Source: a virus. From it: 31,035 nucleotides of DNA. Where the stretch lies: UHGV virus genome UHGV-0099061; one strand, written 5' to 3'. Below are positions 5,859 through 6,510 of this stretch, one piece after another. The notes under the pieces are model-generated. The model saw only the letters and a list, made by a program, of their open reading frames with translations, was not told the origin of the DNA and did no database searches. How positions within the stretch are numbered: the first letter of the stretch is position 1; every line of letters begins with the position of its first letter. The translations under genes and the position numbers were made by a program.

Positions 5859-5927
5859 ATGTTTACTTTTCTGTTAGGCGTATTTGTTGGCATAGCTGCC
5901 GCTGTGATCTTGATATACGGACATTGA
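5859..5927 (+). CDS. mini-ORF 1 of 8, hydrophobic single-TM peptide (22 aa)
   Basis: Found by reading; GAGAGGG SD 5 nt upstream; MFTFLLGVFVGIAAAVILIYGH. Confidence 0.45.
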   Translation: MFTFLLGVFVGIAAAVILIYGH

Positions 5928-5931
5928 TATT

Positions 5932-6036
5932 ATGGATGCTTACATCATCGCCGGATTAATCGGCGTTTCTGTGTTTCTTGTGGGTTCTATTATAGTTGCG
6001 CTGATAAACGTATATATCAAGTATTTGGTGGGGTGA
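5932..6036 (+). CDS. mini-ORF 2 of 8, hydrophobic single-TM peptide (34 aa)
   Basis: Found by reading; starts 5 nt after previous stop; MDAYIIAGLIGVSVFLVGSIIVALINVYIKYLVG. Confidence 0.4.
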   Translation: MDAYIIAGLIGVSVFLVGSIIVALINVYIKYLVG

Positions 6037-6041
6037 AAAAT

Positions 6042-6116
6042 ATGATTGACCCGCTAATTATCCTTTCTGTCTGCGTCGCTGTATGGCTGGCGATCATGAT
6101 ATTCATTGAAAGCTGA
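6042..6116 (+). CDS. mini-ORF 3 of 8, hydrophobic single-TM peptide (24 aa)
   Basis: Found by reading; GGTGGGGTGA SD; MIDPLIILSVCVAVWLAIMIFIES. Confidence 0.45.
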   Translation: MIDPLIILSVCVAVWLAIMIFIES

Positions 6117-6127
6117 AGGTATCCACA

Positions 6128-6208
6128 ATGAACGCATACGAAATGCTATTGCTGGTGGCTGTAGTTGTAGTCATTGCCGTAGATGTTTATCGGGAGTTTA
6201 AAAAATGA
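6128..6208 (+). CDS. mini-ORF 4 of 8, hydrophobic single-TM peptide (26 aa)
   Basis: Found by reading; GAAGGT SD; MNAYEMLLLVAVVVVIAVDVYREFKK. Confidence 0.45.
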   Translation: MNAYEMLLLVAVVVVIAVDVYREFKK

Positions 6209-6273
6209 AATGGCTTGATTTCTTTTTCCTGATCGTTGCGATTGTTCTTACCATGACCGCGCTGACTCAATAG
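6205..6273 (+). CDS. mini-ORF 5 of 8, hydrophobic single-TM peptide (22 aa)
   Basis: Found by reading; ATGA overlap with previous stop; GGGAG SD; MKWLDFFFLIVAIVLTMTALTQ. Confidence 0.45.
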   Translation: MKWLDFFFLIVAIVLTMTALTQ

Positions 6274-6281
6274 GTGAGCGA

Positions 6282-6356
6282 ATGGATGTTATCGAAGCTG
6301 TATTATTCGTATGTATCGCCGCGTTAATTATTGTGGGGGTGATCATCAATGTCTGA
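6282..6356 (+). CDS. mini-ORF 6 of 8, hydrophobic single-TM peptide (24 aa)
   Basis: Found by reading; AGGTGAG SD; MDVIEAVLFVCIAALIIVGVIINV. Confidence 0.45.
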   Translation: MDVIEAVLFVCIAALIIVGVIINV

Positions 6357-6417
6357 TAGTGATTTCTTAATCATGGCTATATGCACGTTGTTAGTCGTTA
6401 TCGTTTTCTTCGCATAA
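6349..6417 (+). CDS. mini-ORF 7 of 8, hydrophobic single-TM peptide (22 aa)
   Basis: Found by reading; GGGGGTGA SD; overlaps previous ORF by 8 nt; MSDSDFLIMAICTLLVVIVFFA. Confidence 0.45.
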   Translation: MSDSDFLIMAICTLLVVIVFFA

Positions 6418-6426
6418 ATGTAAACA

Positions 6427-6510
6427 ATGAAAGAATTATTCGACTGGTTGGAAGTTTTAACATACTGCGCAAGTTTTGTAGCTTGCGTATATATCATCAA
6501 CAAGTATTAA
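6427..6510 (+). CDS. mini-ORF 8 of 8, hydrophobic single-TM peptide (27 aa)
   Basis: Found by reading; weak SD; MKELFDWLEVLTYCASFVACVYIINKY. Confidence 0.35.
   Translation: MKELFDWLEVLTYCASFVACVYIINKY

Follow-up and report, generated by a model that had tools for sequence, protein, structure and literature searches.

The virus genome UHGV-0099061 (31,035 nucleotides (nt), in the following referred to as the window) carries, between the gene of a 190-amino-acid (aa) protein, p190, and the small terminase gene terS, a tiled array of eight very short open reading frames (ORFs) on the plus strand (5859-6510), which are very probably real, selected micro-genes encoding membrane helices. Whereas small phage membrane proteins are already known, the hypervariable tandem array of bare-helix micro-genes is new here. 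The p190-terS interval was compared in 54 loci with both flanking genes, namely in 7 GenBank phages, 46 IMG/VR contigs, and the window itself. In these loci it spans 318-1154 bp and always contains hydrophobic mini-ORFs.

All eight ORFs are initiated by ATG and comprise 22-34 codons each. ORF1-ORF8 are distributed over three reading frames (0, 1, 0, 2, 1, 0, 1, 1) and cover 92% of the 665 bp between the stop codon of p190 and the ATG of terS. An earlier description of the array made from the letters of the DNA without database searches (the sequence-only reading) had proposed eight tiled same-strand ORFs of this size, and all of them are present, with gaps that measure -8 to +11 nt (2, 4, 5, 11, -4, 8, -8, 9, and 11 nt in the order p190, ORF1-ORF8, terS). 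The two coupled pairs proposed there were recovered as well, ORF4/ORF5 sharing an ATGA and ORF6/ORF7 overlapping by 8 nt. Most ORFs were said to possess their own Shine-Dalgarno (SD) sequence, and indeed the duplex energy with the anti-SD is strong at ORF1, ORF3, ORF5, and ORF7 (-6.8 to -9.7 kcal/mol) and moderate at ORF2, ORF4, and ORF6 (-3.2 to -4.4 kcal/mol), the start of ORF8 being devoid of an SD (+0.9 kcal/mol). The description of each product as one hydrophobic helix holds for seven of the eight ORFs, whose maximal 19-residue Kyte-Doolittle hydropathy (2.1-3.1) is well above the classical transmembrane threshold, but ORF8 is only borderline with a value of 1.5.

ORF1 (5859..5927; family F09; 22 aa, MFTFLLGVFVGIAAAVILIYGH) has relatives in 23 of the 54 loci and a ratio of non-synonymous to synonymous substitution rates (dN/dS) of 0.34. 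Its SD (AGAGGG, -8.8 kcal/mol) is carried by the 3' end of p190, the stop codon of which lies 2 nt ahead of the ORF1 ATG. ORF2 (5932..6036; F00a; 34 aa, MDAYIIAGLIGVSVFLVGSIIVALINVYIKYLVG; dN/dS 0.27-0.32) begins 4 nt past the stop of ORF1. For ORF3 (6042..6116; F00b; 24 aa, MIDPLIILSVCVAVWLAIMIFIES; SD -6.8 kcal/mol; dN/dS 0.20), ATG 6042 is the conserved start, and the alternative GTG 6033 would give 27 aa. The stop of the near-universal ORF4 (6128..6208; F02; 26 aa, MNAYEMLLLVAVVVVIAVDVYREFKK; 52/54 loci; dN/dS 0.24) is overlapped by the start of ORF5 (6205..6273; F03; 22 aa, MKWLDFFFLIVAIVLTMTALTQ; SD -6.9 kcal/mol; 50/54 loci; dN/dS 0.26). ORF6 (6282..6356; F04; 24 aa, MDVIEAVLFVCIAALIIVGVIINV; 38/54 loci; dN/dS 0.29) is followed by ORF7 (6349..6417; F06; 22 aa, MSDSDFLIMAICTLLVVIVFFA; dN/dS 0.43), which has the strongest SD (-9.7 kcal/mol) and whose family lost the start codon in one lineage. 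ORF8 (6427..6510; F01; 27 aa, MKELFDWLEVLTYCASFVACVYIINKY; dN/dS 0.19) occurs in all 54 loci and is always the last member; the SD of terS (AAGAGGTGAG) comes right after its stop. Within ORF2, a terminator-like hairpin followed by a T-run is situated at 5949-5965 (CGCCGGATTAATCGGCG), the sole terminator-like match inside the array. Due to its stem varying between 4 and 6 pairs depending on the allele and being largely set by the A-G-L-I-G codons, this hairpin is probably incidental.

The tiling is not a product of chance, as the sequence-only reading had argued. In 2000 dinucleotide-preserving shuffles of the interval, hydrophobic ATG-initiated ORFs of at least 20 codons occurred 0.67 times on average and at most four times, compared to eight in the real sequence. 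The minus strand of the interval contains no hydrophobic ATG-ORF of this type, and the plus strand of the remaining window only six scattered candidates, all of which lack an SD and are located inside larger ORFs. The GC content of the array (39%) is lower than that of the whole window (46%) and of the flanking genes (49%), which is explained by 55% T at codon position 2 of the array ORFs, a hydrophobic-coding signature; position 3 is balanced.

Across the 54 loci, 496 mini-ORF copies with 208 unique peptides were assigned to about 20 families. Their variable sites number 170, 107, and 335 at codon positions 1, 2, and 3, respectively (chi-square p = 3e-30), and 315 synonymous and 297 non-synonymous unique substitution events correspond to an overall dN/dS of 0.27. 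With the exception of one group of three alleles (0.75), all of the 23 family groups show values of 0.14-0.43. The synonymous fraction is 0.53 in frame versus 0.16-0.25 in four other frames, the mirror antisense frame reaching 0.42, as expected there. By the same crude method, dN/dS is 0.12 for the N-domain of p190 and 0.43 for terS. Since the mini-genes fall between these values, they are constrained to the same degree as the established genes next to them. The large terminase gene terL was not relied on as a benchmark, as only 11 alleles passed the filter and the comparison is underpowered. With about three disruption events in about 490 copies (two start-codon losses and one frameshift), ascertainment bias is small.

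Relative to the synonymous rate, replacements of one hydrophobic residue by another reach 0.47-0.48 (Fisher p = 4e-12 for transitions and 1e-6 for transversions) and replacements by other (polar) residues about 0.2; at hydrophobic positions, 115 replacements by apolar or small residues stand against 3 by polar ones. Judged by this pattern, selection acts on more than the bulk hydrophobicity of the mini-peptides. Regarding translation signals, SD duplex energies average -5.1 kcal/mol at the true starts versus -2.2 kcal/mol at other ATGs of the interval (p = 1e-78). The spacing between ORFs is dominated by -4 (ATGA, n = 84), -8, and +4 to +11 nt, which is a signature of translational coupling. 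Together with frames, starts, and stops kept in more than 50 independent genomes, these observations strongly support the proposal that the ORFs are real, translated mini-genes, and the conservation of reading frames that was to be looked for in related phages extends over the 54 loci.

The arrays comprise 3-13 mini-genes (median 9) of 20-47 aa and cover a median of 92% of the interval. The order of families is collinear among loci, but 40 distinct architectures occur in the 54 loci. Besides F01, F02, and F03, the families F00a and F00b (at least 45 loci each) are near-universal; others come and go. In the window, the array reads F09-F00a-F00b-F02-F03-F04-F06-F01. The families F02/F13/F21, F07/F17, F09/F15, and F03/F05a/F05b are paralogous to each other (permutation z = 6-10), from which it follows that the array expanded through tandem duplications followed by divergence. 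Whole genes are the units of gain and loss, with breakpoints at SD-ATG junctions. For instance, the F00b-F02 junction of the window is identical to the F00b-F07 spacer of phage MagusPhagus up to the ATG and to F02 of MagusPhagus from the ATG on, and the F06-F01 junction exhibits the same breakpoint-at-ATG pattern. Locus L059 (4058-4302) contains in-frame chimeras, i.e., the N-terminus of F00a joined to the C-terminus of F02 (MDDYIIAGLIGISVFLVSFVIAVDVYREIKK) and an F03::F04 fusion of 50 aa, which shows that recombination among paralogous mini-genes makes new helices.

The window region is 85-89% identical to the mEp021 group (mEpimmI) of temperate, Nus-dependent, non-lambdoid coliphages, the members matched being mEp021, mEp010, mEp013, mEp044, mEp515, mEp554, and MagusPhagus. 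The array is present throughout this group. In case of locus L056, p190 is only 59% identical, yet the array peptides are nearly identical, and in L057 the array peptides are clearly diverged and accompanied by new families. The next-closest relatives, L060-L062, lack the array. Their p190 shows 53% identity and their holin-lysozyme-Rz-p190-terS synteny is the same, terS begins 3 nt past the p190 stop, and the sole hydrophobic mini-ORF is Rz1. The array therefore represents a lineage-specific accessory insertion at an originally directly coupled junction, and it is dispensable for this type of phage. Its architecture does not go along with particular alleles of holin, endolysin, Rz, p190, or terS; more than one architecture goes with 6 of 8 shared holin alleles and with one fully identical lysis cassette. 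Like moron-type islands, the array is dispensable and shows variable content at a fixed site between core genes. A promoter and terminator of its own for expression from the prophage, as further expected of such islands, were not found, there being no promoter-like site on the coding strand in 3600-7200 and the hairpin at 5949-5965 being largely dictated by codons.

The p190-terS junction is a general insertion hotspot, since some relatives contain other inserts (hotspot entries at L017, L018, L033, L034, and L054, approximately 2836-3000, L007 2021-2506, and L003 2408-2476). In some of them, a hydrophilic and acidic ORF with a length of about 48 aa (M/VSNEELKMADEIRKALDAAENNET...) is located just ahead of terS, and mEp013 carries an HNH endonuclease gene after p190. 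Furthermore, a spacer of about 60 bp with the palindrome GCGCATTTTATGCGC is found at this junction in several relatives.

The peptides are composed of the initial Met, 1-8 polar residues, an uncharged core of 13-30 residues, and 0-11 C-terminal residues. As a rule, the N-terminus reads M-x-x-[aromatic or aliphatic]-[D/E], with conserved family-specific motifs (MNAYE, MDAYI, MDVIE, MSDSDF, MKWLDF, MKELFD). In 159 of 207 unique peptides the N-terminal flank has a net charge of -1 or -2, and in 182 of 207 the charge of the C-terminal flank is 0 to +4. Five of the eight window peptides lack a charged C-terminal tail. In the Pf3 coat protein, a short acidic N-tail is translocated by YidC and the proton-motive force. 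By analogy to this protein and by the positive-inside rule, an orientation with the N-terminus outside and the C-terminus inside is predicted.

Among 5426 complete E. coli genomes, 35 carry the window region as a prophage. The phage type is a siphovirus of about 54 kb of double-stranded DNA (dsDNA) with holin, signal-arrest-release (SAR) endolysin, and Rz/Rz1, and mEpimmI-type phages are reported to be as prevalent as lambdoid phages in human gut isolates (PMC11893012). A terS-based scan of a contig collection with one genome per species yielded no relatives. The gene order in the window is hairpin (3820-3838), holin, endolysin, Rz, spacer, p190, array, terS, terL, portal. The strong terminator-like hairpin just ahead of the holin gene resembles lambda tR'. 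The holin (3863-4063) is a class II protein of the HP1/P21 family with two transmembrane domains (TMDs; PF16080, 1.6e-15), the endolysin (4065-4556) has a Gly/Ala-rich SAR N-terminus, and Rz is encoded at 4544-5014. The lysis system looks like the pinholin/SAR-endolysin type. The array had been placed between the lysis cassette and the terminase genes. This is correct on the side of terS (6522..7007, 11 nt past the ORF8 stop), which encodes an Sf6-type small terminase (PF20901, E = 1e-37) and forms the downstream boundary, but the array has no contact to the lysis cassette, from which it is separated by a spacer of about 270 bp and p190.

This non-coding Rz-p190 spacer (5015-5283) is highly conserved. 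It contains a terminator-like hairpin with a U-run on the plus strand (about 5186..5225), which is annotated as a terminator in mEp021 (TERM_6) and adjoins a TTTATAAAAT motif; hairpin and motif are kept even in the distant array-less relative L060. This suggests a late-operon regulatory element, and the hairpin puts p190, the array, and the terminase genes beyond a read-through site. A consensus scan, which is weak evidence, detected no sigma-70-like promoter on the coding strand in 3600-7200 and two promoter-like sites on the minus strand versus 7.5 expected from shuffles. An Rfam scan of 4900-6700 (E <= 1) gave no match. Presumably, the array belongs to the antiterminated late transcript.

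The upstream boundary gene, p190 (5284..5856, plus strand), encodes a metallopeptidase-like N-domain and a Lys/Glu-rich (Glu/Ala/Lys-rich) tail. The HExxH residues H79, E80, and H83 are invariant, and H87, H102, and E106 are conserved in addition. The N-domain belongs to a widespread family of about 120 aa (phrog_1365, E = 3e-31; 138 representative clusters at E < 1e-3), members of which are often encoded immediately upstream of a small terminase gene. In one source a p190 homolog is labelled 'PolyVal metallopeptidase superfamily domain'. A search of PDB sequences with p190 gave no match, and its AlphaFold2 model, built from a shallow alignment, is poor (predicted local distance difference test score of 52).

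That such ORFs fall below annotation cutoffs, as the sequence-only reading had assumed, is well illustrated by public records. PGAP called none of these genes in the 35 E. coli prophages, and the curated mEp021 record contains no annotated mini-ORF. In the 7 GenBank phage records, 16 of 57 conserved mini-ORFs share the stop with an annotated coding sequence (CDS), 5 of them matching it exactly, and 9 of 25 annotated CDSs are in non-conserved frames. The PHANOTATE-based records (L001-L007) often contain long TTG- or GTG-initiated ORFs in non-conserved frames or upstream extensions of mini-ORFs across neighbours; the MagusPhagus CDSs 2304-2507, 2485-2577, and 2771-2896 are examples. The annotation of the p190-terS region needs revision.

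Scans of the mini-peptides against PHROGs, Pfam, NCBIfam, and PADLOC gave nothing significant. The best NCBIfam hint is the type I toxin model NF047374 for ORF1 (E = 0.29, 11.6 bits versus a cutoff of 60). A resemblance of ORF2 to KdpF was not supported by Pfam or NCBIfam. The holin models of Pfam did not match the eight window peptides or the F08 and F10 peptides of relatives at E <= 10. With the concatenated peptides, tblastn found only the same 7 mEpimmI phages in the phage collection and no match among plasmids. An exact lookup in a collection of 15 billion proteins retrieved ORF2, labelled 'hypothetical' or 'putative membrane protein', from 174 contigs and ORF4 a single time; none of the remaining six peptides is in it. 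When 5.8 billion proteins were searched with a word index for the concatenation of the eight peptides, the only returns were three artefacts of TGA read-through, and because the exact lookup did find ORF2 and ORF4, this negative is not readable as absence. Due to W at each TGA and the lack of a translation under table 11, these three 'proteins' of 139-166 aa (P0001-P0003, L055 213-713), which cover several mini-ORFs, are artefacts of alternative-code calling on short metagenomic contigs. TGA is the stop codon of five of the eight mini-ORFs in the window, which makes such code-4 read-through possible. The mEpimmI paper, a review on phage small proteins, and a preprint on the Enterobacteriaceae microproteome do not describe the array.

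The closest published organisation is that of the holin-like TMD clusters in actinobacteriophages of Gordonia and Mycobacterium, which also consist of consecutive small membrane-protein genes in the late/lysis region of siphoviruses, are highly diverse between related phages, and include some members shown to regulate lysis (PMC9671378, PMC13056207). These clusters comprise up to four genes directly downstream of lysA for proteins of roughly 90-170 aa with 1-4 TMDs, i.e., three to six times larger than the array peptides. In contrast, the array consists of 3-13 genes for bare single helices of 20-47 aa, is located apart from the endolysin gene, and its content does not track the lysis alleles. 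According to its authors, the cluster organisation had not previously been described for phages of Gram-negative hosts (PMC9671378). The array peptides were also considered as holins and rejected, as they are too small (22-34 aa versus about 60-150 aa), mostly lack a charged C-terminal domain, match no holin model of Pfam, and are not encoded beside the endolysin gene of a phage that already has a holin.

Single-gene lysis (Sgl) proteins (PMC7693330, PMC10229422) share with the array members a very small ORF, an SD, and one predicted TMD. The criteria by which sgl genes were found include at least 25 codons (PMC7693330), a length reached in the window by ORF2, ORF4, and ORF8 only. Sgl proteins evolve rapidly and de novo and act on specific inner-membrane proteins, e.g., MurJ and MraY. 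They represent the sole lysis gene of minimal single-stranded RNA or DNA genomes, usually embedded in another gene, whereas the array consists of tandem genes in a dsDNA phage with a full holin-endolysin-spanin set and is thus no sole lysis effector. KdpF, AcrZ, and MgtS are bacterial small membrane-protein regulators, which work by binding larger membrane proteins. Such regulators and the hydrophobic intergenic microproteins of Enterobacteriaceae (PMC11188072) resemble the array peptides in being single transmembrane helices of at most 50 aa under purifying selection that often remain unannotated. Homology to these regulators, including KdpF, was not detected with Pfam or NCBIfam, and they are encoded by single genes beside their partner, in contrast to the phage array with its up to 13 diversifying paralogs within a late operon.

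We tentatively favour, at somewhat less than even odds, that the mini-genes encode late-operon accessory membrane microproteins acting by specific helix-helix binding to inner-membrane proteins. Their transcription would be confined to that of the antiterminated late operon, and their translation would proceed by coupled initiation starting at p190. Late in the lytic cycle, the peptides would enter the inner membrane as bare helices and make sequence-specific helix-helix contacts with host or phage inner-membrane proteins, in a mode likened to that of bacterial small membrane-protein regulators and single-TMD Sgl proteins, rather than poison the membrane indiscriminately. The array grows and shrinks by duplication and whole-gene exchange at SD-ATG junctions as a fast-turning-over, lineage-specific accessory element. 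Specific binding is favoured over a purely generic membrane effect because conservative replacements are constrained. Several points weigh against this reading. Many of the 54 loci are closely related, so that the counts are not independent events, and part of the constraint could stem from overlapping SDs and ORFs instead of the peptides. A helical-periodicity test of amino-acid variability revealed no significant face bias in any family, although one fixed surface of interaction might have caused such a bias, the uncharged core of several members comprises only 13-17 residues and is marginal for spanning the bilayer, and the topology of members without C-terminal charge is ambiguous. It is tempting to speculate, albeit with a rather low probability, that the array is a combinatorial library of bare transmembrane helices ('natural traptamers'), each family binding a different inner-membrane protein. 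Abortive-infection transmembrane effectors, transporters, insertases, or the holin or DNA-entry channel of a competitor phage are conceivable targets, and shuffling of whole-gene cassettes at SD-ATG junctions might allow a quick change of repertoire in an arms race.

The main rival, possible but clearly less probable than specific binding, is that the peptides tune the lysis clock. They would shift membrane energisation or pinholin triggering in a non-specific or dose-dependent manner and thereby set the release of the SAR endolysin, with the number of peptides as a knob. Given the pinholin/SAR-endolysin system of the phage, the timing of which is sensitive to the proton-motive force, a role in lysis timing is plausible; the location of the array some 850 bp past Rz within the late operon, the copy number varying from 3 to 13, and the lysis-regulating clusters of up to four proteins in actinobacteriophages are likewise consistent with it. 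On the other hand, the architecture varies independently of the alleles of holin, endolysin, and Rz, the array is missing from relatives whose lysis cassette is of the same type, and the conserved terminator-like spacer and p190 separate it from the lysis genes. A generic membrane effect would furthermore not need the observed selection against conservative hydrophobic replacements. With still lower probability, the peptides are expressed from the prophage and serve superinfection exclusion or lysogenic conversion by blocking DNA entry of other phages or altering host membrane proteins. The phage is temperate and a common E. coli prophage. At a fixed site flanked by core genes, the array members vary strongly in presence and absence, a typical trait of accessory genes for host interaction, and the same junction has also taken up other inserts (the HNH endonuclease gene and the hydrophilic small ORF). 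Expression from the prophage is disfavoured, however, due to the lack of a sigma-70-like promoter in the scanned region and the late-operon position behind terminator-like hairpins. In addition, translation links the genes in a chain from p190 to terS, and the known exclusion functions of the group are the repressor and a Cor-like lipoprotein (PMC11893012).

The remaining explanations are considerably weaker. ORFs that stay open solely so that ribosomes are passed on from p190 to terS or polarity is prevented, with the peptide sequences as irrelevant by-products of T-rich DNA, would account for the tight packing with stop-start overlaps and for the direct coupling of terS to p190 in array-less relatives, and AT-rich DNA readily yields hydrophobic ORFs (PMC11188072). 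This idea of a translated spacer is largely refuted by a dN/dS comparable to that of the flanking genes and by the purging of conservative replacements as well. The conserved family-specific N-terminal motifs and the strong SD of terS itself also speak against it, and a spacer would have no reason to expand to 13 genes; we regard it as very improbable. Similarly little credit, if anything slightly less, is given to type I toxin-like peptides (Ibs/Ldr/TisB-like) under control of an antisense RNA or to released killers similar to leaderless bacteriocins or phenol-soluble modulins (PSMs). Tandem multi-copy organisation is known from ibs/ldr as well as from psm-alpha and aureocin A70. The tandem type I toxin genes ibsA-E and ldrA-D are transcribed as separate, self-contained units, and every one of them is paired with an antisense RNA. 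Their products of 19-35 aa are very hydrophobic and occur in multiple paralogous copies like the array peptides, seven of eight of which are small, hydrophobic, and single-pass, and the only profile hint points in this direction. The mini-genes, however, form a coupled operon and not autonomous toxin-antitoxin units. No significant match was obtained in Pfam, NCBIfam, or PADLOC, promoter-like sites on the minus strand are below chance, and no Rfam RNA was detected in the scanned segment. The peptides are neither cationic nor amphipathic, and no exporter or immunity gene is located nearby. Finally, one larger gene broken by sequencing errors, which the sequence-only reading had named as the finding that would overturn it, or a polyprotein made by read-through or frameshifting could be suspected from the database 'proteins' spanning several mini-ORFs. 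As these are alternative-code artefacts, the eight ORFs lie in three frames, and more than 50 independent assemblies, 7 isolated phages among them, share the stops, this explanation is practically ruled out.

Small single-pass membrane proteins are a recognised yet poorly charted class, and phages encode many small genes. The p190-terS locus is an unusually clean and extreme case, in which as many as 13 genes of 20-47 codons follow one another and comparative data support protein-level selection on each of them. It also exposes a blind spot of annotation, as PGAP calls none of the genes, PHANOTATE-based records contain roughly one in four, frequently with an incorrect frame, and the read-through artefacts P0001-P0003 in public protein collections could mislead homology searches. 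Natural variants with 0, 3, 5, 8, and 13 genes exist, and both E. coli K-12 and phage isolates such as mEp021 and mEp010 are available. If the traptamer reading is true, the peptides would constitute a previously unrecognised class of phage effectors for host takeover or counter-defence at the lower size limit of proteins, and if they are specific binders of membrane proteins, they would represent minimal, evolvable modulators of bacterial membrane machinery.

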